A stretch of 64,000 nt of DNA from a virus. Taxonomy: Duplodnaviria; Heunggongvirae; Uroviricota; Caudoviricetes. Positions 14,286-52,141 of this stretch are shown here, piece by piece. The notes under the pieces are model-generated. The model saw only the letters and a program-made list of their open reading frames with translations, searched no databases and was not told where the DNA came from. The translations under genes and the position numbers were made by a program. How positions within the stretch are numbered: the stretch's first letter is position 1; each line of letters begins with the position of its first letter. The stretch lies in the IMG/VR virus record IMGVR_UViG_3300047409_000308, positions 1 through 64,000 of that record; one strand, 5' to 3'.

Positions 14286-14560
14286 AATTTACCATCGGAG
14301 ATAGGGTCAGGTTCAACAACACAGACTATCCGGAATGGGTTGACATGGAGGGGACTGTCACTGGCGCGTTCACCACTACAGCGAGCTTTGTAAAACTGGA
14401 CGGCAAGGTGAATCCAAACTGCATCGGTAATGGACACACAGGAGACTACGCTTTCCAGAACAGGAACCTCACCCCTCTCGGTACATCGTTGGAGCAGGAA
14501 CTCACCACTGCCATGGCCCCGCTGTTTCAGTATTCGGCAATCTCGGAAAAATCCTCATAG
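14282..14560 (+). CDS. Paralog 3 of the 'GDRVR...EGTVTG' family (92 aa)
   Basis: 'MKFTIGDRVRFNNTDYPEWVDMEGTVTGAF'; ATGA overlap with paralog 2. Confidence 0.55.
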   Translation: MKFTIGDRVRFNNTDYPEWVDMEGTVTGAFTTTASFVKLDGKVNPNCIGNGHTGDYAFQNRNLTPLGTSLEQELTTAMAPLFQYSAISEKSS

Positions 14561-19434: not shown

Positions 19435-19435
19435 C

Positions 19436-32484: not shown

Positions 32485-35400
32485 TTATTTCTGCGCATGC
32501 GCAGAAACGTACAGTCTATTCGAGTTTTGAATCACATAGTCCATTTGTGCATCAAGCCGCTTGCTGATTGTTCTTTTAAACTCCTCCGGCACGGCGGAGT
32601 CGGCGAGTATCTTCCGTTTCTGCCCGCGCAATGCGGCAAGCTGCGCGTCTGCCTTGGCAAAAACTCCGGCAATCTGCAAATCCTTCTGGTGCGTAGTCAG
32701 AACTTCTTTTACGCGCTCGGCGTCATGGGTCGCAATTGCTTCTTTCATTTCGTTTCTGATCGTCAGTACCTCAGCCGCGTGGGTATAGAAGCTCTCTGTT
32801 TCAGCCCGCTTATCCAAACCGCCGACAACTTTTCTTAGGAATGGAATGCCTGACACCTCAACATCCGCTCCATCCCCAGTGATTGCCATGTAGGCACCAC
32901 GGGCAGTTCGTTGTGCAAACTTCCCTGCTGAACCTGTAATGAAATCCATCAAATAGGAGAGTGTCTCCGGCGAGATATCAACCGCTCCAGGTATGGCTGT
33001 CGTGCCTCCGCTGATTTTGTTTATCCATTCACTCAGCTTCACATATGGCAACGCTGTATTCGACCAATATAATTGGCTGTTTGGTTTCTGCCCCGGAGAG
33101 AATGGATTTTGTTCAGGCACTATCGTCTGACCGGCGAAATTTTTGTTGGTGGACAAGTCAACAAGTGGATCGAAAAGCGTCGGCGACACGAAATTGAGCC
33201 AGTTCTGGGTGCCCCCAAGGGGGTTGGCTGCATCCAGCGCGGTCATGATGGTGGAATTCACCGCTTTGCCGACAGGCGTCTTCCCGGCAACCATCGAGGA
33301 CAAATTGCGGCCCGCGTTGTAGAACGCATTGAACCCGTAAGGCATTGGAATGGCGATGTACTTCGTTGAGCCTGGCATCATGAGGATCATATTGTGCTCA
33401 CCCGCCCACGCTTTCGTGCGCATGATCTTGTCGTAGGCGTTCTCCCCATCCTTGTCATCGGGGGACATGGCCCGGTTCAGCATGTCGATGAGGAAGGCCG
33501 TGCCGACAATGCCATAGGCGATCTTCCTCACCCGAGGGGACTTGAGCGCTCCCACCATCACCATGGTGCCCTGGAGTGATGCGTTGTAGAACAGGTACAG
33601 GCTGTTCATCAGCGTCTTGTATTGTCCGCCCCTGGAGAAGTTGACGGTGATGTTCCGGGCCAAGGTCCCCGCTTGCTCCTTCGTCGCCCCTGCATCGATG
33701 GCCGCTTTGTAGGCAGCAAGCCGGGTGGCATTCTCGAACACCGTATTGACCTGCTCCAGGTATTCCCCGACTGCACGCACCGTATCCATCACCTTGCCGG
33801 TGACACCTCTCCCATCCTGCATGGCCTGCACCCGTTTCTGGATCACCTCTATCTTTTTCCCGATGTCCCGCAGCCCGAGAAAGGCGGTCTTCCCGCCATG
33901 TCGGCTCATGTCATCGAACGCCATTGCCCATTCGTTCGTCGCTGCTGCCGGGTCGTTTTTCAGCGCGAGATACACCCCCTTGATGGCTGACGGGATGTTT
34001 CCCGCGATTCTTCCAGCCACCCCCTTGTAGTCCGTGCCTTGCAGCACGATCTCCGCCATTGCTATGTCTTTGGGAAGGTTGGACAGGAAGAACTCCGGGT
34101 TCCAGGCGGTGTTGACGCGGGCAAGGATAGTGTTTAACCGGCCCATGACTTTGATGATGGTGCCAGCGGTTTCATTGTTTGCCGGATTCACCCCCTTGAT
34201 CGCCGCAGCAAGGCGGTGGTCATGGATGAGGAACTGCGCTTCCCGGATTTTGCCTGGATTCTGCTGGTCGGCTTCCTTGACGACGAGCGTGTTCGGGTCG
34301 TTGTAGGCCGGGTGCTGTTTAACCCTGATGGCTCCATCCTCATCCACTACCCATTCCTTCTGCGTTGGCACGAACTTCTGCTCCTCAACCGTGCCCTTCA
34401 TGATGGGTTCAGCCGAACGCACCAGTCCGGCAAAGGCCCGCCCCACGTTTGCCGACTCCGCGCGCTCGATGGCTTTCTCGTTTTGCATGATGGCCTGAGC
34501 AATGACATGCTCCGGGTCTTTCTTGCGTCCGGTCATCTGCGGGTCTTCCCGCCCGCGCACATCGCCCATCAGCCCGGTCTTCCTCCACTGCGGGATCGGC
34601 GACTCGTCCACGTCCTCCTCGGACTTCCGTAACGGGGCATAGTGTTTAAACCCGAGGGCTGGGTCGTACACCTCGGTCAAGGCGTTGTCCTGCCGCACCT
34701 CATTCGTATTCCGGATGATGTTATCGAACAGGTCGCCAATCTTCTGCATCTGCGCTGCGCCATATTGGGCCTCGATCTTCGCCTGCAACACCGGGGCAGC
34801 AGCGTCGGTATAGCTCGGGCCGGAGCCGTTGATGACGCCGAACTTGGCCTTGAGATAGGCATTGCGCTCGGGCGCATGGCGGGCGGCGAGCCAGGCATCG
34901 GCCTCGTTGATGGGGACTTTGCTGCGCTTCAACTCATCGATCAGCGGGGTGTAGAGCGTCCTCTCCGCCCGGTCGATGCGGTCGCCGATGACGTTGTTCA
35001 GGGCATCGGCCTTGACGTAGGAATTGAAGGCATCGGGCACCGAGCCGTTACGCGCCTTGATGAAGTCGTTTAACCGTTGCAGCGACAGGTTGCGGTCCTG
35101 GAACTTGATACGCAGGTCATCCCGGTGGCCCATCGGCGTGGTGAAGTCATGCACCGCATCAGCGAGCACCGGGAAGCGCCTGCCGAGGCGCTCGGCCAGC
35201 CCTTCATCCCGCACCATCCGCACCCCGTCGCCAGTCAGGGAGAACTTCTGGTTCTTCGGGTCGAACTCCTCGTTCCACACGCTCTTGATGTTCCTGCCAT
35301 CGAACACCGCCACATTCGTCACGGCGTCCTCGGTGATGGTCATGCCGTCATAGCCCGCAGCGCGGATGACGCTATGCACCGGATGCTGCTCCATGGCGGG

Positions 35401-38400
35401 CCAGTTGTGCGTGGCTTCGCCAAAGTTGTTGACGATGTAGGCTTCCACCCTCCGTATCATTCCCTGCGTGGGGCGGATGCTGCTTTGCAGGATGTCGATG
35501 TAATCCTGCGTCTCCGGCAGGTCCGACATGGAGGTGAGCAAGCTCAACAACCTTTGCTCGTACAGCTTGTCCTTGGTTTCTCTGAGAATGCGCGCCGCGC
35601 CTTCCGGAGTTTTGAGTTCGTGATATTTCGGATTTACATAACTCAGGGTCCGGAGTTCGACCATGTGCAACTGCTCTGCATTTTTAAACGCTGCATTGCG
35701 AACGAGGGAGATTAAACGCCGCATGTCGTCGCGTTCTTCCGATAGCAGGTAGCGCCCACGGGCGAACGCCGGAATGACCACGCCCATGTGCGTGTCCTCC
35801 GGGTCAACCAGGCCATACTGCGCATCATATCCAGCGTAGCCGCTCGCAAAGGACGGGCTCGTAGAAAGAAATGTCATTGGGTAGAATCCACGCATGCCTG
35901 GCTCGAATGACTCGAACAGGGTGTGCCTCGGCTCCGTGTCGGTATGCACCGGGTAGCCGGTGCCATGGTACAGAACCAGCGGCAGGTTGTTCCGATCACG
36001 AAGATTGGAGCGGCTGTCGTAGAAATTGGCGAACTTCGGGTTCAGCGTCAACCCGCGCACATAGACATCAGAGATGGAGTATTTCCGCCTGTCCGCATCC
36101 ATCTGCACCTGCTGCTCTGGCGTGATGACGGAGGCTATCGACGGGGCCTGACTGACCGGCCCGCGCAGGATTGATGCAGCCCGCTCGTCCTTCAGGATCG
36201 ACTGCACCCCGAAATGAAGGTTCTTCGGCAATTCATCGGGCTTCGTCCAGGCGTAGCCCTGCGTCTCCCAATCCATGCTCGGGGTGAATTCATGGTCCAC
36301 CTCGGCAATGAAATTGTGATACGAAAACGCACCCTTCTTGAAGGTGTAGAGCGGGGTCAGGTCAAACACACCACTGTATCCAGCTTCTTCCATCACCTCC
36401 CGGCGCACCGCATCCTGCGGGGTTTCATTGCGGTCGATGGCCCCGCCCCAGGTGCCCCAGGTTCCTGGCTGCTCCACATCCTTCGAGCGATGCGCCAGCA
36501 TCACCCGGCCCGTATCCCGCGCCCGGAAGATGACCCCGGCCCCGGCATTGCCCCAGAAGCCCGTCTCGGCCAGCGCCCTGGCGTGCGCTTCTTCGTCGGC
36601 CATGGAGTAGCTCGAACCAGGGTGGGTGGAGAACGTGCTTTCTGGCGGACTTTCAGGAGGAACTGAAACAATCCATCGTGAATTGATGCTACCGCCTCGC
36701 GGATACTCGATTAGCTCCGCTTTGTTTAATTCATGCATTACCTTATGCGGAATTTCGGTGCCATCATCGAAAATAGATTTTGCGGAATTGCCGAACATGA
36801 GCGTCGGGAGATCGCCACCTTGCATGCGTTTAAGCACCTTCTTTGCGGCAGGAGATAATTCCTTGTCAGATAGCGAGAACCTGCCAGATGACGGGGATGG
36901 TCCTACTCCCGCATCAGCCGCAGATGGTCTTCCAGGCTCTCCGCCTGCGGGGCGGTCTTCACGGCCTTCTCCAACAAGGCGACGTACTCCGGGGAGGTCA
37001 CTCTCATTCCCTCCTGCTTCGCTGGCCTCAGCAAGCCTTCCAGATACCCCTGCGCTCCCGGTGGATTCTGGCCCACCAGCCAAGCGGATTCCACGATTCG
37101 TGAGATTTCCATTTCTGGTCCTTGTAAAATAATCCGTTACGGCCTTGTAGTCGCGCAGCAGTTCACGCAGGGTGACGACGATCTTCTGCGAGTCCCCTGA
37201 TACCGCCAGCACCACCCCCATGCGTTGCAGTTCTGGAATGAACCCAGTCTCGCTGTGGTTGTGTTCCGTGTGATGGACAAGCTCATGGATCATGGTGCTC
37301 AGTACCCTGACGCTCGCCTGATGAATCGAGGCCGGGTCTGTGCCGAATCCATCGCGCACGATGGTCGGGTTGAGCATCATTGCCTTGAACGGGATGGACG
37401 TGTTGACCCCGTAATACTCCGTGTCCACGCTAACTCCGACCGGAACCTGGCTTGCATCCGCATATTGCGGCCCGCCCTCGCGCACCACCGCATCGCGCAC
37501 GCGCTTGAACACATTGCCCATGCCGCGCAGATACCCGTACAGTTGCGCCGTCCCCACCTCCTTCGCCGCTTCTTCGAGGTAAGGCTTGCCATCGAGCAAC
37601 ACGTTATCGTGGACGATGAGCATCTGTGGGTCGAGCAGGTTTTGATCCACCCGGAACTGTGTTGGATCACGCTGCATGGCCTTGAGATTTTCCTTGGTCA
37701 TCTCAGGCATGATGCGGTTATTCACATACAGTCTGCCGTCCCTGACTTCCACCTTGTCGTTCTTGTCGATTTTAAGCGTCGTGCTCTGCTTCGCTGGCGG
37801 GACATTGAGGTTGACGCGCGTCATGCGCGTTCCATCTGGCGACCATTGCGCCAGCGTGCCGAAGGATGATGTGGAGGCTTCATCCTGTTTGTTGGCGTAG
37901 AGCACGTTGATATATTTTGTCAGCGTCTCGAAGTCCGACTTCGCCGCCTGCGAATATCCCTTGCGGTTCAGTGAAATCGGATAGTTTGGCGCATCGGCTT
38001 TGACATCCGGTTCGATGTTGAAGAAGAATTTATATGGAACCGACCCGGAAAATATATCCAGCGGGTCTTTGCTGATCTTCTCATCGAACTGAAATAACCC
38101 ATTTGATAGCACCGACACGTTGTTATAGCCTGGGTACTGTGTCTCGGCCACCAGCACGCGCACTTTGCCCCACGGAAACTTCGCCACTGTCATCACGGTA
38201 TATTCATCTGCTGGGAAATTCTTTCCGATGGGCACCGTATCGCCGTTCACTCTGACATTGACGGGCTCGAACAGCGGGCTTTCCTTGAGGAAGCGATGCG
38301 CATCATAGGAATCTGGAAACTGGATGGGCTTATCTGTCCCGTCCTCATCGTCGTGGTACGTCTCCGGCACCTTGACTGTAACCACCGTACCTGATGGTGC

Positions 38401-41400
38401 GGACGTTTTACGCATTAGGATATCCGGTGCCTTGGATGGGTCAGTGAATGCGCTCATGAGTTGCGCACCGGAAGTATTCAGGGTGCTCTCTAGGCCGTTA
38501 CGCACCGTGCGCAGTTGCAGCGATTCGTTGCCGAACAGGAACAGCATCTTTGCAATGCCAAGCCCGCCGGATGCCCGTTCCGTTTCCTTCTGCGTTCCGG
38601 CGAGCGTGAGGAATGCCTTGTTGATCGTCTCCGGCGTCATGCCCGTGCCATTGTCGGTCAGCGTAATGGTTCGGTGCGTATCGTCCAGGTCGATGTCAAT
38701 GTTTGCCTCGCCCTTGTGGCCTTGCGCCAAGGCTCCCTTCAACGCATCGAAGGAGTTCTGGAACATCTCCTTGATTGTGACCGGGCCGATGTCCTTCATG
38801 TTGCCGTACAACTGCGGGCCAAGGAGTTTCGCCATGCGCGCCATGTCCACGCCTGGCGTAGCACGCACGCTACCGGGCTCATCGGCAAGCGAGAACTTGC
38901 TGCTCTTGTCCTGGGCAATCAGATCGCGTGCGGCCTGTGCTGCATCATCATAGGAATCATGCATCGACTCCTGCCCCTTGTAGAGCAGGTGATGTTTGGT
39001 ACCGATGACATTGCCCTGCGCGTCACGGTATTCATGGCGCGTCAGGATGGCGGGGAATAGCGGCCCGCGCGACCACGCTTGTACGCTTGAGTGCGGCGTT
39101 ACATCCTTGCCGCCTGTCCGGTCGGAAAGGGAGAGCTTCGTTCCTGGCGCTACTTGGGCTTGGCTGGCGGCATCGATTTCGAGCTTGGCAGCGTTCCGCC
39201 GAGCATCATGTAGCCGAGCGAGTAAATCCGGTCCCCCGGCTGCGCGACTCTCTCTTTCGAGAGCACTTCCTCCGGGGTCGGGATTGGCCCCGGTGGTGCC
39301 CCAGTTGTGAACGAAGTACCGGGTTTCAGCGCCAAAGGTACTGGTTTGCGCAATGTCATGGTGCAATGCCTTTGCAAGGATTCTCATCTGGATGTGGAAG
39401 TCCGCATCCGTCATCATGAATGGTACGCCGTCAGCACGGAAGTTCAATACGGCAATCTCATTCGGCGCAACCTTGGTGTAGGACATTTCAGGATGCGCCT
39501 GCTGCAACAGGGCGTACACGATCTGTTCCTGTTGTAACGTCAGGTCTTGTTTAAACTCGAAGCTGCGCCCTGCGGCATAGCGCGGATCGTTCTGGTTGAA
39601 CGCGATGTCCGGCCTGATCCACGGCACTGCTGCCTGCCGAAACACGTACTGCCATGCACGCACGTACTGGTTCACCTTTATCTGCGGCGTATTGCCGGGG
39701 AAGCGCACCAGCGCATTGGGATTGACGTTACCCTCGAACGCACCCGTCGATAGCGTGATGCTCGGGGCCGGAATGCGCAGGCCCGTGGCGATGATGTCCG
39801 TGCCCGCCCTGGGCTGGATGAGGTTGATGCCGCTCCGGGTGAAGGCTTCCCTCGCTGGCGTGGGCAGGCTCAAGATAGCAGGGCCTACCGCTATTTCCTT
39901 CGCCGGTACTGTCTCCAGCGCCCCTGTGCGGTTGCCGTATTCGTCAGCAAGCGATTGCCTTGTCTGCGGTGCTGCCTCGCCTGTCTGCCTGCGCATCTCA
40001 CCAGTGGTTCCAATTCCCGCCTCGCCTTGGCCCATGCGTTCGAATATATCGTCGGCGGAATGGAAGCCTTGGCCTGTCAATCCATTGCGCAGCGCCTCGA
40101 AGAAATTGCGTATCTTGTGATAGATGCCTGGGAAGAACCCGGACACATGCAGATCGCCCATGGCGTGCGCTGCGAACATGTCGGCCACAGCTTCTTCGTG
40201 CAGGCTTTCCTGCGTCAGGTTCTGTCCGGCATAGCGCGTGCGGATCGAATCCTTGTGCTTGCCAATGGGCCGGTCGAGCCAGCCTTCGCGGTCGATCTTC
40301 GCTTTCAGCAACTCCCAGTTCTTATCCGAGATCAAGCCATGCTCTCGCAGGGCATGGACGATCTCATGGTGCAGGGCGCGCATCGGCTCGCGCATGGGCG
40401 AATCCAAGGCCACCGCAATCATGTTGGCGAAATCGCGCCATTCCCCTTCAGCCCGCCTGCCGACTCCAGCGGGGATGAGGGTTTCAAGCGACAGCGCTAC
40501 CTGCTTCGCATCCAGTCCTGCCTGTGTCATCACGCCCTGGAGCATGCCTCGCATGTTGTAGATTTGCTGTGCCGCGAGAGCAGCCTTGGGCACTACATTC
40601 GGCTGAACCTTGACCGGGGTGCGTATCCTCGCTGCAACCTCTGCGGGTGAACCACCTTGCGGAACGATGACCGACGCCACCCCGCCAGCCGGGGCTGCAC
40701 CACCCTGCCTGCGAGTTGCTTCGTCCGCAGCCATTTGCGCCACCCGTTGCTGGGCAATGGATGGGCCAGGAATCCGGCCAAGGGATTGTTCCTCCGGTGT
40801 CCGTGTGTCTTCTCCAGCTTGCCGCATGGCAGACAGGGCTTCGTCGGACGAGCGCTCAACCCCAGCCGCACGCGCTGCTTCTTCGGTGGGGAAGGTGGCA
40901 ATGGGTTGGGCTTGCCTGACTCCGTTCGTGGACCCGTACAGGGAATGCCCCTGGGTCGTTCCCTGGGCCGTTGCGGTGGTCGTTGGGACAATCTGATGTC
41001 CAGGTATCAACTCGGGTGCGTTCGCGCCTACAGCGGCCCCTACGGGCCTTCCATGAGCCTCTGCGGGCATTCCTGTGGCAGCTTCAGGTGCGGCCAGCTT
41101 GGTCAGGTCGGTGAGGACGGGGAATTTTTGCATCTCCTGTAATATCTTCAGCACAGCAAAGCGCTGCGGGTGGGACATGGTAGTAATGTCTTCCCAGCCC
41201 GTGATCTGCTTCATCAAACTCCGGAACCCTTCGTTCTTCCCGCCGTTGGTGACGATGTTTGCATCGTCATGCGCGGCCTTGGTGATCTGATCCTCAGATA
41301 CCTTGGCCTTCAGCTTGAATCCGTGCCGGATGGCAAGCAGGCGGTCGATGTGGTTTGCTCGGTCTGCTCCGGACGTGGTGCCGTTTTCAGAGAGCGCCGC

Positions 41401-42657
41401 TGTCACCTCGCTGATGGTCATGCGTTCCGGAACAGGCTGTCCCGTCTTCTCCGCTATCCGCTGAACGAGCGGTGCGCCAAGTTCCTCTGTTGAGAATGTC
41501 TCTGCTTGCGGGATGACTGGCGCAGCCGGTGCTGCCTCTAGCGTTGGCGCAGCCTCACCTTTGTGTTCCAGGCGTAATTGTTCTGGATCGACGCCTGTAG
41601 CGCCTACATTCTGCGCCGTGCGGGCTTCTTCCCTGCGTTTTTGTGCTTCCAACAAGGCATACAGACCTTCCTGGCTCGGCATATCACCGGGTTGCAGCAG
41701 GTCCCTCGCCAAGGGCGGCTTCGCCGGGCCTTCCAGTCCAGCCATGCGCGCAAGACCGCCTATTCCGGCCCCACCCACCCCACCGGCCAACCCGGCCTGG
41801 AGGATGTTCTCCATGCGCTTCGAGGTAAAGAAGTCGGTGTCGGTCAGATTTGCCGCTGCCGCTTCCTGCATCACCTGCTGCGCAGCTTCGGTGAACGTCT
41901 CGGCCATCGTGCCGGAAATTGCTGGATGTTCCGCGACAATCGCTGAAAGTTTCGATGCAAGCGTACTTGCGCCAGCCGCTTCGACTTCCTTCGCCGTACC
42001 CCCGCCCAAGGCCCTGCCTATTGCCCGGACCAGCGGCTTAGTCCCATAGGTGGACAATGCCTTTGACATTTGCCCGAGGGTGAAGGTATCGAGCATGCTG
42101 ATTGGGACGGCCACCACCTTGGCCCACAGCTTCGCCTGATCGTCCGGGATGTTCTCCTGCCGGAACTGAAGATAAGTATCGCCAAGGTTGAGCGGATAGG
42201 CCCCGGCAAAGCCCCCGGCCAGCCCGCCAACTACCCCACCGGGCGGTCCAGCCAGGGCAGTACCGGCAGCGGTGCCTGCGGCCATGCCACCGAGGATCAA
42301 GGGGGTCGAGGTGATTGCACTGCCAAGCCCCTGGCCCAATGTTTCGCCAACCACCTGGCGTGGTTTTTCAAGCAGTGCGAATGGACCCGCCGTGGGGATG
42401 TCTGCCGGTGGACCGTTGATGTCTTCCTGGGACAGAGTGCCTATCCCGGCAGCAGCACCAGCCGCCTTCAGATTCGGGATGAATCCCTGGAATGGCTGTT
42501 TAAATGCAGAGCCAAGGGACTCAAAGAAACCGTAGCGATGCGGTTCTATGCCGTGCGCAGGAAGAATCTCTTTTTCGATAACACTGTTGATTTCATCACT
42601 GGACATGTCCTCCGGGAAGCGGACATTGCCAACGCCTTCAATTGCAACAAGAGCCAT
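32485..42657 (-). CDS. Giant multi-domain 'polyvalent' virion protein (3390 aa). Hydrophobic Gly/Ala-rich N-terminus, HExxH #1, GHKL ATPase, HExxH #2, NUDIX box and a weak ART-like segment.
   Basis: Verified on DNA. HEIVH at 40354-40368. GHKL G1 box DNGTGM at 38638-38655, N-box 'EMFQNSFDA', G2 'GGLGIA'. HELVHH at 37261-37278. Nudix box 'GGAIDRNETPQDAVRREVMEEAGY' ending 36376-36402. 'LYHGTGYP' at 35950-35973. Confidence 0.85.
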   Translation of the reverse strand: MALVAIEGVGNVRFPEDMSSDEINSVIEKEILPAHGIEPHRYGFFESLGSAFKQPFQGFIPNLKAAGAAAGIGTLSQEDINGPPADIPTAGPFALLEKPRQVVGETLGQGLGSAITSTPLILGGMAAGTAAGTALAGPPGGVVGGLAGGFAGAYPLNLGDTYLQFRQENIPDDQAKLWAKVVAVPISMLDTFTLGQMSKALSTYGTKPLVRAIGRALGGGTAKEVEAAGASTLASKLSAIVAEHPAISGTMAETFTEAAQQVMQEAAAANLTDTDFFTSKRMENILQAGLAGGVGGAGIGGLARMAGLEGPAKPPLARDLLQPGDMPSQEGLYALLEAQKRREEARTAQNVGATGVDPEQLRLEHKGEAAPTLEAAPAAPVIPQAETFSTEELGAPLVQRIAEKTGQPVPERMTISEVTAALSENGTTSGADRANHIDRLLAIRHGFKLKAKVSEDQITKAAHDDANIVTNGGKNEGFRSLMKQITGWEDITTMSHPQRFAVLKILQEMQKFPVLTDLTKLAAPEAATGMPAEAHGRPVGAAVGANAPELIPGHQIVPTTTATAQGTTQGHSLYGSTNGVRQAQPIATFPTEEAARAAGVERSSDEALSAMRQAGEDTRTPEEQSLGRIPGPSIAQQRVAQMAADEATRRQGGAAPAGGVASVIVPQGGSPAEVAARIRTPVKVQPNVVPKAALAAQQIYNMRGMLQGVMTQAGLDAKQVALSLETLIPAGVGRRAEGEWRDFANMIAVALDSPMREPMRALHHEIVHALREHGLISDKNWELLKAKIDREGWLDRPIGKHKDSIRTRYAGQNLTQESLHEEAVADMFAAHAMGDLHVSGFFPGIYHKIRNFFEALRNGLTGQGFHSADDIFERMGQGEAGIGTTGEMRRQTGEAAPQTRQSLADEYGNRTGALETVPAKEIAVGPAILSLPTPAREAFTRSGINLIQPRAGTDIIATGLRIPAPSITLSTGAFEGNVNPNALVRFPGNTPQIKVNQYVRAWQYVFRQAAVPWIRPDIAFNQNDPRYAAGRSFEFKQDLTLQQEQIVYALLQQAHPEMSYTKVAPNEIAVLNFRADGVPFMMTDADFHIQMRILAKALHHDIAQTSTFGAETRYFVHNWGTTGANPDPGGSALERESRAAGGPDLLARLHDARRNAAKLEIDAASQAQVAPGTKLSLSDRTGGKDVTPHSSVQAWSRGPLFPAILTRHEYRDAQGNVIGTKHHLLYKGQESMHDSYDDAAQAARDLIAQDKSSKFSLADEPGSVRATPGVDMARMAKLLGPQLYGNMKDIGPVTIKEMFQNSFDALKGALAQGHKGEANIDIDLDDTHRTITLTDNGTGMTPETINKAFLTLAGTQKETERASGGLGIAKMLFLFGNESLQLRTVRNGLESTLNTSGAQLMSAFTDPSKAPDILMRKTSAPSGTVVTVKVPETYHDDEDGTDKPIQFPDSYDAHRFLKESPLFEPVNVRVNGDTVPIGKNFPADEYTVMTVAKFPWGKVRVLVAETQYPGYNNVSVLSNGLFQFDEKISKDPLDIFSGSVPYKFFFNIEPDVKADAPNYPISLNRKGYSQAAKSDFETLTKYINVLYANKQDEASTSSFGTLAQWSPDGTRMTRVNLNVPPAKQSTTLKIDKNDKVEVRDGRLYVNNRIMPEMTKENLKAMQRDPTQFRVDQNLLDPQMLIVHDNVLLDGKPYLEEAAKEVGTAQLYGYLRGMGNVFKRVRDAVVREGGPQYADASQVPVGVSVDTEYYGVNTSIPFKAMMLNPTIVRDGFGTDPASIHQASVRVLSTMIHELVHHTEHNHSETGFIPELQRMGVVLAVSGDSQKIVVTLRELLRDYKAVTDYFTRTRNGNLTNRGIRLAGGPESTGSAGVSGRLAEASEAGGNESDLPGVRRLVGEGREDRPAGGEPGRPSAADAGVGPSPSSGRFSLSDKELSPAAKKVLKRMQGGDLPTLMFGNSAKSIFDDGTEIPHKVMHELNKAELIEYPRGGSINSRWIVSVPPESPPESTFSTHPGSSYSMADEEAHARALAETGFWGNAGAGVIFRARDTGRVMLAHRSKDVEQPGTWGTWGGAIDRNETPQDAVRREVMEEAGYSGVFDLTPLYTFKKGAFSYHNFIAEVDHEFTPSMDWETQGYAWTKPDELPKNLHFGVQSILKDERAASILRGPVSQAPSIASVITPEQQVQMDADRRKYSISDVYVRGLTLNPKFANFYDSRSNLRDRNNLPLVLYHGTGYPVHTDTEPRHTLFESFEPGMRGFYPMTFLSTSPSFASGYAGYDAQYGLVDPEDTHMGVVIPAFARGRYLLSEERDDMRRLISLVRNAAFKNAEQLHMVELRTLSYVNPKYHELKTPEGAARILRETKDKLYEQRLLSLLTSMSDLPETQDYIDILQSSIRPTQGMIRRVEAYIVNNFGEATHNWPAMEQHPVHSVIRAAGYDGMTITEDAVTNVAVFDGRNIKSVWNEEFDPKNQKFSLTGDGVRMVRDEGLAERLGRRFPVLADAVHDFTTPMGHRDDLRIKFQDRNLSLQRLNDFIKARNGSVPDAFNSYVKADALNNVIGDRIDRAERTLYTPLIDELKRSKVPINEADAWLAARHAPERNAYLKAKFGVINGSGPSYTDAAAPVLQAKIEAQYGAAQMQKIGDLFDNIIRNTNEVRQDNALTEVYDPALGFKHYAPLRKSEEDVDESPIPQWRKTGLMGDVRGREDPQMTGRKKDPEHVIAQAIMQNEKAIERAESANVGRAFAGLVRSAEPIMKGTVEEQKFVPTQKEWVVDEDGAIRVKQHPAYNDPNTLVVKEADQQNPGKIREAQFLIHDHRLAAAIKGVNPANNETAGTIIKVMGRLNTILARVNTAWNPEFFLSNLPKDIAMAEIVLQGTDYKGVAGRIAGNIPSAIKGVYLALKNDPAAATNEWAMAFDDMSRHGGKTAFLGLRDIGKKIEVIQKRVQAMQDGRGVTGKVMDTVRAVGEYLEQVNTVFENATRLAAYKAAIDAGATKEQAGTLARNITVNFSRGGQYKTLMNSLYLFYNASLQGTMVMVGALKSPRVRKIAYGIVGTAFLIDMLNRAMSPDDKDGENAYDKIMRTKAWAGEHNMILMMPGSTKYIAIPMPYGFNAFYNAGRNLSSMVAGKTPVGKAVNSTIMTALDAANPLGGTQNWLNFVSPTLFDPLVDLSTNKNFAGQTIVPEQNPFSPGQKPNSQLYWSNTALPYVKLSEWINKISGGTTAIPGAVDISPETLSYLMDFITGSAGKFAQRTARGAYMAITGDGADVEVSGIPFLRKVVGGLDKRAETESFYTHAAEVLTIRNEMKEAIATHDAERVKEVLTTHQKDLQIAGVFAKADAQLAALRGQKRKILADSAVPEEFKRTISKRLDAQMDYVIQNSNRLYVSAHAQK

Positions 42658-42660: not shown

Positions 42661-44448
42661 CTATGGTTTTCCGGGTTGATAACCACCTGCCCTTGTGTAT
42701 GTGTATGCGCCAATCGGAGCCGGAGTCGTATCCTCCTTTGGCATGCTTCCAAGCCCTTTCCTTATCATTTCCTCAAGTTTCATCTGCGTGATGGCGCTGT
42801 TCCTTGCCTCCCGGTAGATATATGCCTCACGTTCCTCATCGGACAGGGAGCCAAGTTTCTGCCCAAGCGGGGTTGCCGCAGAGTCGGGTCTGGTAAGGAT
42901 ATTCATGAGCGTCTTGCGCCCCTCTGCAACATGAACGCCGATTGCCCCGTATAGCTTATTCTTCTCCTCCTGCCCGAGCTTCAGCTTCATCAACTGATAG
43001 TCGGAATCGAGACGGGCCTGCGTATCATTCGCGCTTGTCGCGGCATGAATGTTCGCTGCTGCAATCGTGGCAGCGTTTCTTTCCCTTCCCTCGGCAAGAC
43101 CGAACTGGCCGGAGATGGCGTGTCCTATTCCTTGTGCCCACATCTGCTTCTGGTCGCTGGTCAGTTTGGCGAACTGATCCTGGAGATGTCGCTGCTGCGT
43201 CATCGCCCTATCGACATTGCCGACAGCTTCTGCCCGCTGCGCCTGCTCATAGGTGGCTGCAAGCGTGGTCAGCTTCATCTTGGTATCGTCATCCGCCTTC
43301 TGCGTTTCGAGGTACTGCCTCATCCCCGCTCCAGCCCCAGCCCCGATGTTCGTCATGGCATACGGGCTGGTGCCAGCCATGGTGGCGAATCCAGCCTGCA
43401 TCAGTGCCTGTCCAAGCCTGCTTCCGCGTTGGTCAGCAAGCTCCCCTTGCATCTTCTTCAGTTCGGCCATGGATGTTTCATAGGGCTGCCCTGAAGGCAT
43501 CAAGGCATCGGTTTCTCGTTTGATGTCAGCCAGTGGCCGGTTGGCCTGCACCCCAGCCTTCGCCAGGTCTGCGGTTCCGGGCGCGTTCTTCATCGCCTCA
43601 GTCACTTGATTCATGATGGCCTGAATATCAGGCGTGTTCGCTGTGCTCTCAGGCATCTTCAATCCCACCCCGCCAGTGCGGACAATCGGACGTTTATACG
43701 TGTCATCCGGGTTCGGTGGCGGCGGCACAACCACATTCGCCCCGCCAGCGCCAAGACTGGTTGGCCCGCTGATTCTTTCTTCGGGTTCTCCGGTGTACAA
43801 CGACGGTGTTACTGCTGCTGGAGATGTTGTTGGACGCAACGGATCAAACGATGGATCAAGACTTTGTTGCCATGTTGGATTGACGGTTGGTTCACGGGAC
43901 CTGTCGTACATCGCGCTAGGGATATTCGACAAGTCATACCCTTGCCTACCGAACAGGGTATTTCCAAGCCATGCCGGATAACTATCTGGTTCAGGTACGG
44001 TTTCACCATTAGCAAGCGACACGATTCCACCACCAGCATAGCCTTGCGGCTTCATCGGTTGCTGCATCGGCTGCGGCGGTTGCTGTTGCGCCATGGGCTG
44101 CTGCGCTCCTTGGGTAAGCGGTTGAAGCATCTGCTGTCCGGGCTGGAGCATTTGCTGGCCTGGTTGCGGCTGCGGTGCCTGCTGGAATAGTTGTGGCTGA
44201 GGTGCAAGGGTGCCTGGGGGCAAAGCCCCGATACCAGAAAATTCCCTCTGCAAATCTTCCATGACGGTGGAGGTGGGTGGATTGCCGCCTTGCTGCAACC
44301 GGGCCGCATCCATCAACTGTTTCTTGCCTATCAGGGCTGGAGCCGCCACCGCTGCTGGCATCGTCGGAAACTGCCCGGCAATGGCTTGCTCCAACTGCGG
44401 GATGCTCATCCCCTGGGCTTGCTGCCAGAGAGCGTTTATATCAGGCAT
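42661..44448 (-). CDS. Virion-associated protein with Gln/Pro-rich region and a 'GYAGGGIVSLANG' motif (595 aa)
   Basis: Immediately upstream of the giant gene. Shares a 12-aa motif with the ORF at 45914..46903. Confidence 0.55.
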   Translation of the reverse strand: MPDINALWQQAQGMSIPQLEQAIAGQFPTMPAAVAAPALIGKKQLMDAARLQQGGNPPTSTVMEDLQREFSGIGALPPGTLAPQPQLFQQAPQPQPGQQMLQPGQQMLQPLTQGAQQPMAQQQPPQPMQQPMKPQGYAGGGIVSLANGETVPEPDSYPAWLGNTLFGRQGYDLSNIPSAMYDRSREPTVNPTWQQSLDPSFDPLRPTTSPAAVTPSLYTGEPEERISGPTSLGAGGANVVVPPPPNPDDTYKRPIVRTGGVGLKMPESTANTPDIQAIMNQVTEAMKNAPGTADLAKAGVQANRPLADIKRETDALMPSGQPYETSMAELKKMQGELADQRGSRLGQALMQAGFATMAGTSPYAMTNIGAGAGAGMRQYLETQKADDDTKMKLTTLAATYEQAQRAEAVGNVDRAMTQQRHLQDQFAKLTSDQKQMWAQGIGHAISGQFGLAEGRERNAATIAAANIHAATSANDTQARLDSDYQLMKLKLGQEEKNKLYGAIGVHVAEGRKTLMNILTRPDSAATPLGQKLGSLSDEEREAYIYREARNSAITQMKLEEMIRKGLGSMPKEDTTPAPIGAYTYTRAGGYQPGKP

Positions 44449-44449: not shown

Positions 44450-45490
44450 TCATTGTCCTATCTTGTTGGCGAGCGAACCCAACCCTGCCCCAGCCATGCC
44501 TATCCCCGCAAGCTGGCCATATACCGAAGGTGGGGCCTGGAATGTCTGTGCGTCTGTGGTGGGGCTGACTGGCAACCCGCGCAGGATGCCGGAGAGGAAT
44601 CCAAGCTGTTGCTGCGGATAGGCTTGAGCATTCTGGAACTGGTTGTAAGCGGCATTCAACTGGTTCTGCTGCTGCGTCTGCTCCAATGCCCCAAGGGTTT
44701 GCAGATTGTTGATGCCCTGCTGCCCCATATTGGCCTGCTGCCCGCCGATGTTGGCAAGGTTTTGCCCCTGCAATCCAGCGAGGCCATAGCCGGACAATCC
44801 CAACTGCTGCGCTCCTTGTGCAAGCTGTCCCTGCTGTCCCATCGCCTGCAAGGCCGTGTTGAATCCCTGCTGTCCACCCTGCATCTGGATGTTGTTGAGG
44901 AGCGTATTCTGGTTGAACTGATCCTGCGAACCGCGCAGTTGGTCCCTGTACCCGCCCAAGGCCCCGTGGGACGCCGCCTGGGCGCTTGCCGCGTTTTGCT
45001 GCTGCCCGAATTGCACATTCGCTTGCTGCTTCGCAATGTCCGTCACCCCCTGCTGGTAAGGGTTCATCCATTGCTGCACATTCTCCGGAGAATAGATTGA
45101 GGCAAGGCCGGACGCGCTCTGTCCCAAGCCGAGTGCTCCCTGTCCAGCCTGTTGCGTTAGCCCGGCACCAGCACCCAAATTGCCTATGCCCTGCCCGGTC
45201 TGCTGTGCCTGAAGCCCAGACGCATTCGCCCCAGTATTGATGGCTTGCTGCTGCAACGGGGAAGTATTTGCAACAAGCTGGCCTGGATAGGCTGGGTACG
45301 CTCCCTGCGATACATCCTGCGCCCGGTTGAGCATCGACAAGTAATACGGCATCGCCTCAGGGGCAACATTGCTCTGCGTCACCGTCTGACTGGTTGCCGC
45401 AGGTGGAGCACTCCCCCCACCCTTGCCATTCACCGGAATTGGTGGAAGCCCCAATGCCAGGAGTCGTACCTGTTCAGGCCGCAGCAGCAT
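44450..45490 (-). CDS. Gln/Gly-rich low-complexity virion protein (346 aa)
   Basis: Extensive QQ/GQ repeats; frame maintained over 1 kb. Confidence 0.5.
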   Translation of the reverse strand: MLLRPEQVRLLALGLPPIPVNGKGGGSAPPAATSQTVTQSNVAPEAMPYYLSMLNRAQDVSQGAYPAYPGQLVANTSPLQQQAINTGANASGLQAQQTGQGIGNLGAGAGLTQQAGQGALGLGQSASGLASIYSPENVQQWMNPYQQGVTDIAKQQANVQFGQQQNAASAQAASHGALGGYRDQLRGSQDQFNQNTLLNNIQMQGGQQGFNTALQAMGQQGQLAQGAQQLGLSGYGLAGLQGQNLANIGGQQANMGQQGINNLQTLGALEQTQQQNQLNAAYNQFQNAQAYPQQQLGFLSGILRGLPVSPTTDAQTFQAPPSVYGQLAGIGMAGAGLGSLANKIGQ

Positions 45491-45917
45491 ATTTCACCTC
45501 TATTTTTCCAATCCAGCGCTCGGCTTCTTCAACGAGCAACCCGTACACCCAGCCATCGGAACCGTTCCGATACACCCGCCGGAGCAACCCTTCGCGTTTA
45601 AACCCAATGCCTTCGCAGAGCCGTATCGACGGAAGGTTCGTGCGTTCGATGATGCAGGTCACACGGCCAGCACCCACATCGCGGAACGGATAGGACAGCA
45701 ATGCCTTGATCGTCCTGCGACTGGCCCAGCGCGGGCTGTCGGCAGCGATAGCCATCTGCATGTTGTTTCCGTCGTAATCATAATAAAGACAAGCAGCAAT
45801 GATGCTTTTGCCGTTCCCAATAGCAATCCCTACATTAGGTCCAGCCGATCTCATCACCGGAACCCGTTGCAAAACCCACGGCCCACAATCCAGTCCATAC
45901 AAAATATCGAGGCTCAC
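45474..45917 (-). CDS. GNAT-family N-acetyltransferase (RimL/RimJ-like) embedded in the structural module (147 aa)
   Basis: 'VGIAIGNGKSIIAACLYYDYDGNNMQMAIAADS' and C-terminal 'NLPSIRLCEGIGFKREGLLRRVYRNGSDGWVYGLLVEE' match the typical GNAT motifs. Confidence 0.6.
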   Translation of the reverse strand: MSLDILYGLDCGPWVLQRVPVMRSAGPNVGIAIGNGKSIIAACLYYDYDGNNMQMAIAADSPRWASRRTIKALLSYPFRDVGAGRVTCIIERTNLPSIRLCEGIGFKREGLLRRVYRNGSDGWVYGLLVEEAERWIGKIEVKYAAAA

Positions 45918-46903
45918 GCTGGCAATACCTCGTCAGGATTGATATCCTGCGGCTGCTTCGGCAAACCTGCTGTCCTGTTTATACGCTGGACCATATCGTG
46001 TAATCGCTGGCTACCGGCTTTGGTTGAACCGTTACCAAGAGCAGCCACGGTACGCGCTGGTATAACGTGTTCACCTTGGCTAAGAGCAGCAGGTTGCGCA
46101 CCGTCAATAAGCGCAGAAATCCCATCACTGGTTCCTGTTCCAGGCCCATCCACCAATCCGCCACCACCACTAAAGGCAGCAGTAAGTAAGGGATCATTTG
46201 GCGATCTGATTCCGAGCTTTAATAGGGGGCTGTCCGGATTGCGTAGGTCGCGCTGCGCTGCTACCAGGGTTGGATAAGAACTGCGTATAAACGCAGTGGC
46301 CGAACGTCGCCGGGCGATCTCCTGAGCCATACCTGGAAGCGGAGCCAACCCGCCGCCAGCGAGAGAAACGATGCCGCCGCCAGCATAGCCCAGTCCCTGT
46401 AGATGCGGAGCGGAGTAGGCGTTGTACATCGCCATCGGGTCCATCAGCGTCTGACTCATCGGCCCCGGCTTAATCTGCGCAAGGCGTGACTGTAAGGCTG
46501 CATCCTGCTGCTCCTGACGCTTAGCCATTAATTGCGCCTGGGTTCTTCCGGCAAAGGTGCTGGCAAGACCAAATGCAGAAGCACCCAGCATGCCTGAGAT
46601 ATATGGGTGTTTGTCGATAAACTGACCGACAGGTTTGAATTTGTCTGCAAACTGTCCCGCCTGATCCCAAAAACCAGGTTGTGCCAAAGACGATAAACCT
46701 GCTCTCGTTGCTTCATAAGCCGGATAGGCAGAACCTGCACCGGCTGCATTGGCGGCAGCGTCAAGACCAGCATCAGCCCCTAGCGCTGAACTACCGGCAC
46801 CAAAAGCCGTTCCGGCAGTTCCAGCAAGAGATGCAGCCTCCGCAGCCGCAGCATCGGCAGCCATTACCTCGGCTAAGGTTCCTCCATAAATAAGACCTGG
46901 CAT
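45914..46903 (-). CDS. Virion-associated protein with a 'GYAGGGIVSLAGG' motif (329 aa)
   Basis: Ala/Gly-rich N-terminus; shared motif with 42661..44448. Confidence 0.5.
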   Translation of the reverse strand: MPGLIYGGTLAEVMAADAAAAEAASLAGTAGTAFGAGSSALGADAGLDAAANAAGAGSAYPAYEATRAGLSSLAQPGFWDQAGQFADKFKPVGQFIDKHPYISGMLGASAFGLASTFAGRTQAQLMAKRQEQQDAALQSRLAQIKPGPMSQTLMDPMAMYNAYSAPHLQGLGYAGGGIVSLAGGGLAPLPGMAQEIARRRSATAFIRSSYPTLVAAQRDLRNPDSPLLKLGIRSPNDPLLTAAFSGGGGLVDGPGTGTSDGISALIDGAQPAALSQGEHVIPARTVAALGNGSTKAGSQRLHDMVQRINRTAGLPKQPQDINPDEVLPA

Positions 46904-46906: not shown

Positions 46907-47221
46907 TTACGCCCTCTCAATCAAGGTTTCATCGATCTTCTCCGGGTCCGTCACCTCGGAGGCATGGACACAGAACCATACAATGTCATCCAGCGCCTTG
47001 ATGATGTGACGCTGCCCGCGCACGATGATGATGATGGACCCAGGCTGGTATTCAGTCTTCTTGCCATCGACCTCGACTTCCGCCCGGCCCTTGCACAGAA
47101 AGGAAAAATGGTCATAGGTGTGAGCATGGGAGAGGATGTAACGGCCAGCAGGAACCCGTATCTCCTTGGCGTAGATGCCGGTGGCAAAGTGATGCTGTGT
47201 ATCGCCCTGTGTCATTGTCAT
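46907..47221 (-). CDS. Cupin-domain protein (104 aa)
   Basis: 'YILSHAHTYDHFSFLCKGRAEVEVDG...PGSIIIIVRGQRHIIKA' shows the cupin_2-like two-motif pattern with His residues. Confidence 0.5.
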   Translation of the reverse strand: MTMTQGDTQHHFATGIYAKEIRVPAGRYILSHAHTYDHFSFLCKGRAEVEVDGKKTEYQPGSIIIIVRGQRHIIKALDDIVWFCVHASEVTDPEKIDETLIERA

Positions 47222-47250: not shown

Positions 47251-47487
47251 CTAAATTGCCGTACCCAGGTCGGTCGTCGTCAACGTCCCGGTCGTGGATA
47301 CCGTAATCTCCCAGAAGTGGGGCGGCGTGGCGGCGTCACGGAGGATGAGTTTCTTGCTTGGGTCGATGACGATGTTCCGGCGCTGCATGTTCTCCACCCC
47401 CACCGCCCACAGTTCGAGCTTCCTGAATATCCTCTGGAAAGAACTCGCATCGTATTCATCCGGCGCAAGGTCAATTCGCAGTGGCAT
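47251..47487 (-). CDS. Hypothetical protein (78 aa)
   Basis: Internal ATG adjacent to the upstream gene's stop. Confidence 0.4.
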   Translation of the reverse strand: MPLRIDLAPDEYDASSFQRIFRKLELWAVGVENMQRRNIVIDPSKKLILRDAATPPHFWEITVSTTGTLTTTDLGTAI

Positions 47488-51711: not shown

Positions 51712-51712
51712 A

Positions 51713-52141
51713 TCAACTCCCGGTAATTCTAACAATAGCCGTCAGCGCACCTGCTGGCGGGAACGTCACAAGGAAGGAAGTCTGCGCCGTCTTGTCCAAC
51801 CCGAAGTCGAGCACCGACACCGCACGGTTTGCCTTGGACGAATTGTAGATAAGGCCGTAGCGAATGCCTGAGCCAGTCAGACTGAAAGTAACATCCTCGA
51901 AATCGCAATAGGCTGTGACGCCTGATGTAGCGGGGGCAATATTTGTCAGCGCCAGTCCGCCAGCGGTGTAGCCCGGCAGAGTGATCTCACCCGTCGTTGA
52001 GTAGGCTGTCGTGGAGGAATTTAGCGTGGCGGAGGAGGTGAACAACGCGAGCTTGAGTACATCACCACCAACGTCGATGACATGTAGTCCCAGGAATAAT
52101 TCCCGCAAAAAGCTGACAGGGGTGCATTGCGTCGATGCCAT
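51713..52141 (-). CDS. Hypothetical tail protein (142 aa)
   Basis: Stop 1 nt from the next gene's start. Confidence 0.45.
   Translation of the reverse strand: MASTQCTPVSFLRELFLGLHVIDVGGDVLKLALFTSSATLNSSTTAYSTTGEITLPGYTAGGLALTNIAPATSGVTAYCDFEDVTFSLTGSGIRYGLIYNSSKANRAVSVLDFGLDKTAQTSFLVTFPPAGALTAIVRITGS

Follow-up and report, generated by a model that had tools for sequence, protein, structure and literature searches.

A probable phage-type polyvalent protein that joins a GHKL ATPase-zincin module to NUDIX and ADP-ribosyltransferase domains in an uncultivated podovirus-type phage

In a 64,000-nucleotide stretch of viral DNA (IMG/VR record IMGVR_UViG_3300047409_000308, positions 1 to 64,000; hereafter the window), the gene that closes the virion operon of the minus strand encodes a 3,390-aa protein in which several unrelated enzyme and effector domains share one open reading frame, namely NUDIX, a GHKL ATPase, an ADP-ribosyltransferase (ART), two zincin-like domains and LPD38. 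We consider it probable that this is a phage-type polyvalent protein, made late, packed in a podovirus capsid and expelled into the host together with the DNA. Phage-type polyvalent proteins, with predicted delivery alongside DNA, were described by Iyer et al. (2017; PMC5512222), who list LPD38 as phage-only, and the window protein shares with them the giant multidomain build, the late or virion context, LPD38, ART-PolyVal and interspersed zincin(s). The evidence bears out the initial annotation's reading as a polyvalent ejection protein, a class that is not new; homologous giants occur in Stx, Bcep22-like and MinM2 phages. The annotation's further claim of an undescribed architecture applies, in the narrow sense that no description was found, to the GHKL-zincin module and the combination of this module with NUDIX, but not to the class itself, which is well described. 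New are the GHKL-zincin module, the NUDIX fusion and a boundary motif that recurs seven times. Since the main text of Iyer et al. (2017; PMC5512222) makes no mention of a GHKL/Hsp90/MORC-type ATPase and has NUDIX only as a neighbor of the InPase domain, the repertoire given there is extended by the NUDIX fusion and by the module of GHKL and Wss1-like zincin.

Domain architecture of the giant protein

The gene is a single frame of 3,390 codons, and the same protein is obtained when genes are called independently on the 74,321-bp source contig, in agreement with the single 10.2-kb ORF with several catalytic signatures first proposed. Translational coupling links it to the preceding gene, whose TAG is separated from the ATG by 3 nt. 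Nearly all motifs lie where they had first been placed (regex on protein and DNA coordinates). Its parts are as follows.

32485..42657, minus strand: whole gene, 3,390 aa, final gene of the virion operon
41665..42351, minus strand: N-terminal Gly/Ala-rich, moderately hydrophobic region, aa 103-331 (phrog_6958)
39958..40539, minus strand: first HExxH domain, aa ~707-900, with HEIVH at aa 764-768 and a downstream EEAVAD helix
37993..38892, minus strand: GHKL (Bergerat) ATPase with transducer-like domain, aa ~1256-1555, gyrase/Hsp90/MutL/MORC type
37093..37620, minus strand: second HExxH domain, aa ~1680-1855, HELVHHTEHNH (HExxHx5H) plus E1809
36211..36543, minus strand: NUDIX hydrolase domain, aa 2039-2149, complete Nudix box at aa 2072-2094
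35266..35997, minus strand: ART-PolyVal ADP-ribosyltransferase, aa 2221-2464 (PF18760 positions 1-137 of 140)
32503..35211, minus strand: conserved C-terminal module, aa 2483-3385, with LPD38 at aa 3084-3273 (32839-33408)

At the level of the whole gene, megablast against phages and plasmids gives no match, and aa 1-100, 332-706, 901-1255 and 1928-2017 match no family in Pfam, PHROGs or NCBIfam; about 1,000 residues, in the last three of these stretches, thus have no assignment. The motifs are not chance matches, given that NUDIX and GHKL exceed their curated Pfam cut-offs and that the ART-PolyVal profile is covered almost in full.

The ATPase was correctly recognized as a complete GHKL/Bergerat domain, with the N-box EMFQNSFDA at aa 1297-1305, the G1 box DNGTGM at exactly 38638-38655 and the G2 box GGLGIA at aa 1364-1369; HATPase_c scores above the curated cut-off (Pfam), and the residues E1297/N1301/D1304, D1335-G1339 and G1364-G1367 do not vary among 18 homologues. 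The GHKL fold is followed by a transducer domain, the second domain that characterizes the gyrase/Hsp90/MutL/MORC branch, and in a fold search the predicted folds of the module match MORC, ParE, Hsp90 and Wss1. By its sequence and predicted fold the domain is thus a GHL-superfamily ATPase of the gyrase/Hsp90/MutL/MORC type, for which ATP binding and hydrolysis are predicted. Its identity to characterized GHL ATPases (MORC, Hsp90/HtpG/TRAP1, MutL, ParE/GyrB, TopoVI-B) is 11-17%, and unlike these it lies inside a virion polyprotein, lacks Toprim, CW or endonuclease partner domains, and in all cases has a Wss1-like zincin after it.

Both HExxH zinc-peptidase motifs reported earlier are present, but they belong to different types of zincin; structure prediction covered the two regions that contain them. 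The downstream motif, HELVHH (aa 1791-1796), lies at 37270-37287, 9 nt from its first placement at 37261-37278; with a third ligand on a zincin fold, its domain is a minimal zincin of the Wss1/SprT/YbeY type with predicted protease activity, differing from Wss1/SprT (WLM) and YbeY in having no Pfam match and other flanking domains. The upstream motif, HEIVH, is found at 40354-40368, exactly as first placed. Its domain has no Pfam match and only spurious PDB matches to designed helical proteins. On weaker evidence than for the other domains, it is probably a zincin resembling lethal factor and MtfA, of the peptidase type known from polyvalent proteins; a homologue search with aa 690-1250 returned nothing, and neither zincin matches the Pfam polyvalent-protein peptidase model.

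The GHKL domain and the second zincin are constantly linked as one module of ~650 aa (aa 1256-1920). Catalytic residues are invariant across homologues that are 30-60% identical. A homologue search with the GHKL module returned only 5 matches, and an exhaustive search of cluster representatives was used instead. More than 1,700 protein clusters and 193 IMG/VR contigs carry the module. Each of the 80 contigs examined has it within a giant ORF and never free-standing, and across 150 cluster representatives and these 80 loci the ORFs measure 1,200-6,400 aa. Searches of 50,697 GenBank phage records and 72,556 plasmids (PLSDB) gave no match: the module is widespread among metagenomic phages but missing from all deposited phage genomes that were searched.

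The NUDIX domain reaches 58-62 bits with the Pfam profile PF00293 (cut-off 21.1; E 8.5e-17 to 1e-15), matches phrog_1198 MutT/NUDIX (E 1e-22) as well as Nudix structures in the PDB, and encloses the canonical NUDIX box that had been read from the DNA (GX5EX7REVMEEAGY, 36376-36444). What had been called a weak ART-like stretch does carry the ART His, in YHGTG at aa 2230-2234 (YHGTG and LSTSPS, 35851-35970), but appears to be a full-length ART-PolyVal domain whose N- and C-terminal halves are parted by an insert of ~100 aa. Of the two polyvalent signature domains in Pfam, ART-PolyVal scores just below its curated cut-off (E 8e-7, 30.4 bits, 0.8 below 31.2) and LPD38 scores well above (E 2.5e-34, 119-125 bits, cut-off 27).

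The N-terminal region (aa 103-331) matches phrog_6958, "virion structural protein" (E 4e-10), and recurs at the N-terminus of seven other giant proteins (P0015, P0020, P0030, P0111, P0129 and P0144 among them). As first described, it is Gly/Ala-rich and moderately hydrophobic (Kyte-Doolittle maximum 1.32), but the implied zipper offers no obvious membrane anchor: a Kyte-Doolittle scan finds no convincing classical transmembrane helix, after which both the N-terminal "glycine zipper" and the C-terminal module were dropped as evident anchors. A role as a membrane conduit is therefore not directly indicated.

C-terminal module and phage context

The C-terminal module has homologues in 341 phage records, including 933W, phi24B, JC1, BcepIL02 and Vibrio and Ralstonia phages, and also matches phrog_14770, phrog_616 and phrog_10691. 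In such giant proteins the LPD38 module is always strictly C-terminal, and where an LPD38-like module is present it ends a median of 8.5 aa before the end of the ORF (42 proteins). The module appears to be the virion-packaging and ejection part, and it is homology within this module only, at 23-29% identity, that points to packaging and ejection of the giant protein. JC1 gp69 was detected in purified virions by mass spectrometry (PMC9144972). Also by mass spectrometry, phi24B gp47 is abundant in virions, while it is invisible in the cryo-EM reconstruction, and its authors put it forward as an ejection protein with a conduit or peptidoglycan role (bioRxiv 10.64898/2026.04.10.717836). In coliphage PTXU04, plaque formation needs a 2,198-aa putative polyvalent protein.

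The relatives share this module and differ in what precedes it. phi24B gp47 and 933W L0134 align with the window protein over their C-terminal ~870 aa (28-29% identity, E ~1e-97, 95% coverage) and are likewise the last gene of the virion module, but in gp47 LPD38 is preceded by LPD5, LPD1 and a MuF-C peptidase, GHKL, NUDIX and ART domains are all lacking, and the remainder of these phages is unrelated to the window phage. Bcep22 gp75 and JC1 gp69, the "DarB-like antirestriction protein" of Lessievirus, align over the C-terminal ~900 aa, C-terminus to C-terminus (E 3e-38 for gp69), whereas the remainder of the 4,515-aa gp69 has no significant BLASTP similarity to the window protein. Its "DarB-like" label is not transferable through the common C-terminal module; an identity with P1 DarB was considered for the window protein and rejected, as the methyltransferase and helicase domains were not found (Pfam, PHROG, NCBIfam). 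The closest cultured relatives are Synechococcus phage MinM2 and Planktothrix phage Pag-Yong1, which have a 70% identical capsid protein, tail and virion genes that are homologous and in the same order, and, at the corresponding place, a giant gene. The MinM2 giant protein (2,803 aa) is homologous only in its C-terminal ~420 aa and has an annotated RelA/SpoT domain in place of GHKL-zincin, NUDIX and ART, which points to cargo exchange within one phage lineage. T4 Alt and N4 virion RNA polymerase are similar in outline, as capsid-carried enzymes that act on the host right after injection, and the latter (~3,500 aa) also contains a zincin; no sequence relationship of either to the window protein was found, and no RNA polymerase module.

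Judged from its sequence relationships, the phage is an uncultivated podovirus of the HTVC023P/MinM2 type, which explains why no tail tube, sheath or tape-measure genes were recognized, an absence rightly noted at the outset. Capsid, tail fiber, virion and "DNA ejection" protein genes lie upstream of the giant gene on the same strand, and, like its counterparts in JC1, 933W and MinM2, the giant gene ends the virion operon. The neighboring genes considered here are the following.

42661..44448, minus strand: 595-aa Gln/Pro-rich protein, no family match, candidate internal or ejection protein
44450..45490, minus strand: 346-aa Gln/Gly-rich protein (phrog_4287 "DNA ejection protein", E 9.4e-12)
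45474..45917, minus strand: GNAT acetyltransferase (weak Pfam match to Acetyltransf_3; JC1 gp63)
45914..46903, minus strand: 329-aa protein, C-terminus homologous to the MinM2 "calcium-binding protein"
47487..49388, minus strand: 633-aa virion/tail protein (phrog_3287, E 1e-61)

Synteny with MinM2, Pag-Yong1, DSL-LC04 and pelagiphages is anchored (tblastn) by the 633-aa protein, whose counterparts in related phages bear the annotation "constituent" or "stabilization" protein, and the N-terminus of the 346-aa protein is homologous to MinM2 MM2_23. The two upstream proteins said to share a motif are those of 595 and 329 aa, both with GYAGGGIVSLA. The upstream cupin (Cupin_2, E 7e-11) is confirmed; the GNAT is weak in Pfam (E 1.3e-4) but homologous (BLASTP E 1.5e-13) to the N-acetyltransferase JC1 gp63, encoded at the equivalent place a few genes upstream of the JC1 giant gene. 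Other neighboring virion genes compared with JC1 are not detectably homologous, three upstream neighbors having no significant BLASTP similarity to the JC1 proteins encoded at comparable places. The JC1 synteny is therefore positional except for the GNAT and the C-terminus of the giant gene, and homology of neighboring genes is found with MinM2. Taken with LPD38, ART-PolyVal and the virion-detected homologues, the operon position and the podovirus type uphold the original preference for an injected polyvalent protein over a tape measure.

Boundary motif and proposed mode of action

The motif [FYLQ]-S-[LIM]-[AST]-[DG] occurs seven times in the giant protein (0.17 expected), and none of 2,000 shuffles reached seven copies, a statistic that is post hoc as the motif was defined after viewing the sequence. 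Every copy lies at a domain border or beside a low-confidence linker.

39943..39957, minus strand: motif 1, QSLAD, aa 901-905, end of the first zincin
39121..39135, minus strand: motif 2, LSLSD, aa 1175-1179
38881..38895, minus strand: motif 3, FSLAD, aa 1255-1259, directly ahead of the GHKL module, at the low-pLDDT start of the model
36865..36879, minus strand: motif 4, FSLSD, aa 1927-1931, past the disordered linker C-terminal to the second zincin
36595..36609, minus strand: motif 5, YSMAD, aa 2017-2021, ahead of NUDIX
36067..36081, minus strand: motif 6, YSISD, aa 2193-2197, NUDIX/ART junction
35230..35244, minus strand: motif 7, FSLTG, aa 2472-2476, junction of ART and the C-terminal module

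The strict form is restricted to the window protein, and a looser F/Y-S form is found in a few close relatives and in P0004, which has its own FSR[AS] version four times. Since it is not conserved in most relatives, the motif is a lineage-specific feature and not a signature of the family.

In the mechanism that we propose, the C-terminal module would form an invariant packaging and ejection (conduit) part, to which the two or three upstream Gln/Pro-rich proteins and the Gly/Ala-rich N-terminus perhaps contribute, while the middle of the protein would be exchangeable cargo that works in the newly infected cell. The ART may ADP-ribosylate a host target, as T4 Alt does, and the adjacent NUDIX may hydrolyze nucleoside-diphosphate-X compounds, either RNA 5' caps or nucleotide immune signals, the latter derived from NAD/ADP-ribose or of another kind. 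The GHL-type ATPase would act as an ATP-driven dimerizing clamp or chaperone coupled to the Wss1-like protease, and the zincins may in addition cut the polyprotein into working units, with the seven boundary motifs as candidate cut sites.

A more specific joint reading, which we put forward tentatively and regard as rather unlikely in its entirety, is that the GHKL-transducer and Wss1-like zincin constitute an undescribed virion-delivered, ATP-driven machine. For example, a MORC/MutL-like clamp on the entering DNA might direct a DNA-dependent protease against DNA-bound host proteins, such as restriction or other defense nucleases, and so resemble ArdC in function, while NUDIX and ART might destroy or hijack NAD/ADP-ribose-based immune signaling and the seven-fold motif would be a polyprotein cut site. 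Wss1 and SprT relatives are DNA-dependent proteases.

Alternative explanations and meaning

It is unlikely, in our estimation, that the protein is packaged but its GHKL-zincin module serves the virion, as an Hsp90-like chaperone or processing protease for the 370-kDa polypeptide in the capsid or after threading through the tail. In sequence the ATPase matches Hsp90-family chaperones most closely, and the module is never free-standing in the 80 loci; moreover, autoprocessing is discussed by Iyer et al. (PMC5512222) as a main role of polyvalent-protein peptidases, and a conduit or peptidoglycan-clearing role has been proposed for phi24B gp47 (bioRxiv 10.64898/2026.04.10.717836). However, periplasm and mature capsid are without ATP, and minimal zincins are not known to hydrolyze peptidoglycan. 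Structurally the ATPase is as close to the DNA-acting MORC, ParE, MutL and TopoVI-B, and the DNA dependence of Wss1/SprT proteases likewise argues against a virion-directed function.

Very unlikely is an unpackaged protein, either a cytoplasmic, late-expressed polyprotein for host takeover or anti-defense or a toxin freed at lysis. For the enzymes to work, plain expression would serve just as well, but effectors made late come too late to protect incoming DNA, the gene is placed between virion genes and the operon end, and mass spectrometry has found homologues of its C-terminal module in virions.

Less likely again, and already largely refuted, is a chiefly structural role, for instance as tape measure or as internal scaffold or core, with catalytic motifs that are chance matches or decayed relics. 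The C-terminal module and the long Ala/Gly-rich stretches, neither with an enzymatic signature, would fit such a role, as would the weak matches of the neighboring 329-aa protein to tape-measure PHROGs (E ~1e-4); against it stand the podovirus type without tube or sheath genes, the lack of a match to any tape-measure family in Pfam or PHROGs on the giant protein itself, the curated cut-offs passed by NUDIX and GHKL, the invariance of the catalytic residues and the predicted MORC, ParE, Hsp90 and Wss1 folds. The idea that adjacent genes were fused by assembly or sequencing error is barely credible, for although the contig is a single metagenomic (Logan) assembly from one sample, its 10,170 nt are stop-free with all domain matches in one frame, the module recurs within giant ORFs in 80 of 80 related viral contigs and in the cluster representatives, and the syntenic giant genes of JC1, 933W and MinM2 belong to finished genomes, so that the frameshift or fusion feared initially is not indicated.

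Polyvalent virion proteins are thought to be the first strike of a phage on its host, and almost none of their domains have been assayed. The GHL ATPase with its Wss1-like protease represents a large domain family that is common in environmental podovirus-sized contigs and missed by cultured phage collections, which makes it a candidate for a new anti-defense or self-processing activity. The comparison of MinM2, JC1 and the Stx phages yields a working model in which an LPD38 delivery module stays constant at the C-terminus and the enzyme cargo can be swapped, and the boundary motif is a directly testable prediction of the positions at which the polyprotein may be cut. The delivery and cargo model could guide the engineering of phages that inject chosen enzymes.

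A single late gene at the end of the virion operon

The 3,390-aa giant protein is the product of a single late gene, with intact catalytic motifs and folds and a strictly C-terminal module homologous to proteins detected in virions. Its ORF (32485-42657, minus strand) is one uninterrupted frame of 3,390 codons, and when genes were called independently on the source contig (74,321 bp; Logan assembly of SRR35509274), an identical protein resulted. Only 3 nt separate the upstream gene's stop codon from the ATG, and since the next gene downstream lies on the opposite strand, the giant gene is the last of its operon. Upstream on the same strand are capsid, tail-fibre and virion genes, as well as a match to a PHROG 'DNA ejection protein' family. 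Other genes of the window are:

8503-10161, plus: 552-aa protein, C-terminal half matching AAA ATPase family phrog_249 (PHROGs label 'porphyrin biosynthesis'; E 2e-39)
14527-16275, minus: primase-helicase, near the 552-aa AAA ATPase-type protein
19388-20356, plus: exonuclease, near the same protein
25474-26343, plus: tyrosine recombinase/integrase, 289 aa (phrog_1, E 2e-47)
42661-44448, minus: 595-aa protein
45474-45917, minus: small GNAT acetyltransferase, among the virion genes
45914-46903, minus: 329-aa protein
46907-47221, minus: cupin, 104 aa (Cupin_2, E 7e-11), within the virion operon
49363-51735, minus: tail fibre, 790 aa, ending in a phage depolymerase beta-sandwich domain at the C-terminus (PF25692, E 1.4e-7)

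The recombinase may mean that the phage is temperate, or may serve to resolve dimers; the 552-aa protein is possibly a CobS/MoxR-like ATPase, and the depolymerase domain is a hint that the receptor may be a capsule or polysaccharide. The 595-aa and 329-aa proteins have a near-identical Gly-rich GYAGGGIVSLA(N/G)G in common (BLASTP E 4e-6) and consist otherwise of unrelated Gln/Pro/Ala-rich sequence; neither protein matched any family. The GNAT has a homologue in phage JC1, gp63 (33% identity, E 1.5e-13), whose gene likewise precedes the JC1 giant gene by a few genes, and this suggests an association of GNAT and giant protein conserved across unrelated podoviruses. Among cultured phages, the capsid protein is closest to those of Synechococcus phage MinM2 and Planktothrix phage Pag-Yong1 (70% identity), followed by those of DSL-LC04, the pelagiphages HTVC023P and HTVC027P, and the Roseobacter phages CRP-901 and CRP-902; these phages are all of ~50-65 kb, and podoviral morphology is ascribed to the HTVC023P type.

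Enzyme domains and the GHKL-zincin module

All motifs named in the initial annotation are present in the giant protein, at the coordinates assigned there except for HELVHH, which occupies 37270-37287 rather than 37261-37278. A Pfam scan of the whole protein and of overlapping ~450-aa segments gave the following domains:

aa 1295-1432: HATPase_c and HATPase_c_3 (30.3 and 28.4 bits, each above its own cut-off)
aa 2039-2149: NUDIX (61.9 bits, cut-off 21.1)
aa 2221-2464: ART-PolyVal (profile positions 1-137 of 140; 30.4 bits, just below the cut-off of 31.2), in two halves with a ~100-residue insert between them
aa 3084-3273: LPD38 (E 2.5e-34)

Neither HExxH motif has a Pfam match, and both were therefore examined through homologues and structure. 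Residues 1-100, 332-706, 901-1255, and 1928-2017 (~1,000 in all) match no family in Pfam, PHROGs, or NCBIfam. Exhaustive HMMER searching with residues 690-1889 as the query recovered 1,712 cluster representatives at E < 1e-3 (304 at E < 1e-30), and almost all of the 150 best align with residues ~1255-1920; on sequence grounds, the GHKL domain through the second HExxH is one conserved unit. An 18-sequence alignment of this module shows no variation in the N-box, G1, and G2 residues or in H-E-x-x-H-x5-H, and a downstream Glu is nearly invariant. The module profile matched Hsp90-family, MutL, and TopoVI-B chains in the PDB, and the AlphaFold model has a mean pLDDT of 77.9. Given the homologue alignment, the profile matches, and the model, the second HExxH belongs to the minimal zincins of Wss1/SprT type.

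The module was not found by tblastn among 50,697 GenBank phage records or 72,556 plasmids; representative genomes of 185,579 species yielded nine loci, all in metagenome-assembled genomes and none in isolate genomes. It is encoded by 193 viral contigs of IMG/VR, and in each of the 80 examined it lies within an ORF of 1,200-5,600 aa, never free-standing. Pfam detected HATPase_c in 13 of 15 module-bearing giants, LPD38 in seven, ART-PolyVal in five, LPD39 and InPase in three each, RadC in two, and DNA methylase, LPD22, ddrB-ParB, and SLT in one each, and the GHKL-zincin module thus belongs to the regular repertoire of polyvalent proteins. NUDIX occurs in none of the 15. In the closest relative (62% identity in the module), ART comes first, followed by the first zincin and then the GHKL-zincin, an order that differs from that of the window protein, so that domains are evidently shuffled among relatives. 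The main text of the paper defining the polyvalent-protein class mentions NUDIX in passing, lists LPD38 with phage-type members only, and makes no mention of GHKL, Hsp90, MORC-type ATPases, Wss1, or SprT (Iyer et al., 2017; PMC5512222). For the NUDIX domain, the closest viral relative (52% identity) is at 3001-3440 of IMGVR_UViG_3300050156_000143, a jumbo-phage-sized contig of 277,516 bp, in a stretch whose listed ORFs are all short (102 aa counted from its ATG); this setting is consistent with recruitment of NUDIX into the polyprotein.

The C-terminal module and virion proteins of other phages

Residues ~2500-3385 align with the C-terminal ends of three PHROGs families of 2,800-3,900-aa proteins, and wherever the module is present in an iterated search, a median of 8.5 residues separates its end from that of the ORF. 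With the last 908 aa, tblastn matched 341 phage records, including the Stx-converting phages 933W (L0134) and phi24B (28-29% identity, E ~1e-97, 95% coverage) and Vibrio, Ralstonia, Bacillus, and Bcep22-like Burkholderia phages. Proteomics showed the phi24B homologue gp47 (2,811 aa; a peptidase and LPD5, LPD1, and LPD38) to be abundant in virions, but it is missing from the cryo-EM map; its authors propose an encapsidated ejection protein (bioRxiv 10.64898/2026.04.10.717836). JC1 gp69, detected in purified virions by mass spectrometry (PMC9144972), aligns C-terminus to C-terminus with the window protein (E 3e-38) and nowhere else. MinM2 has the same gene order and homologous tail and virion genes, but its giant gene in the equivalent position (2,803 aa, annotated 'RelA/SpoT') has only the last ~420 residues in common with the window protein. 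The MinM2 and JC1 comparisons support a model in which the C-terminal delivery module stays constant and the enzyme cargo can be exchanged. In coliphage PTXU04, plating is strongly reduced when a putative polyvalent protein of 2,198 aa is knocked down (PMC11879866).

Boundary motif and proposed function

The motif [FYLQ]-S-[LIM]-[AST]-[DG] occurs seven times (aa 901, 1175, 1255, 1927, 2017, 2193, and 2472), each time at a domain boundary or beside low-confidence ends of the AlphaFold model. Residue shuffles gave 0.17 expected copies and none of 2,000 reached seven, for a pattern set only after the sequence had been inspected. The family as a whole does not conserve the motif; in some close relatives F/Y-S variants stand directly ahead of the GHKL module, and JC1 gp69 has RFSVS directly ahead of its C-terminal module. 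We hypothesize that the copies may be lineage-specific processing or linker sites. As a parallel observation, the relative P0004 (4,008 aa) carries FSR[AS] four times (aa 1584, 2288, 2396, and 2556; MQFSRSQ, KRFSRAF, PRFSRSQ, and INFSRAQ).

The initial observation is confirmed, and its reading as an injected polyvalent protein is supported. The protein would be packaged and then ejected, with the C-terminal module, perhaps together with the Gly/Ala-rich N-terminus, which matches a PHROG 'virion structural protein' family, serving packaging and conduit formation; no classical transmembrane helix was found, and membrane insertion is without direct support. The zincins may free the units of the polyprotein, ART and NUDIX could act in host NAD/ADP-ribose or nucleotide chemistry, and the GHL ATPase with the Wss1-like protease may form either a DNA-associated protease machine directed against the host or a device for self-processing and refolding. 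Since the class is known, with recent experiments behind it, the protein is not categorically new; what distinguishes it is the widespread and apparently undescribed GHKL-zincin module, the rare NUDIX fusion, and the striking boundary motif.
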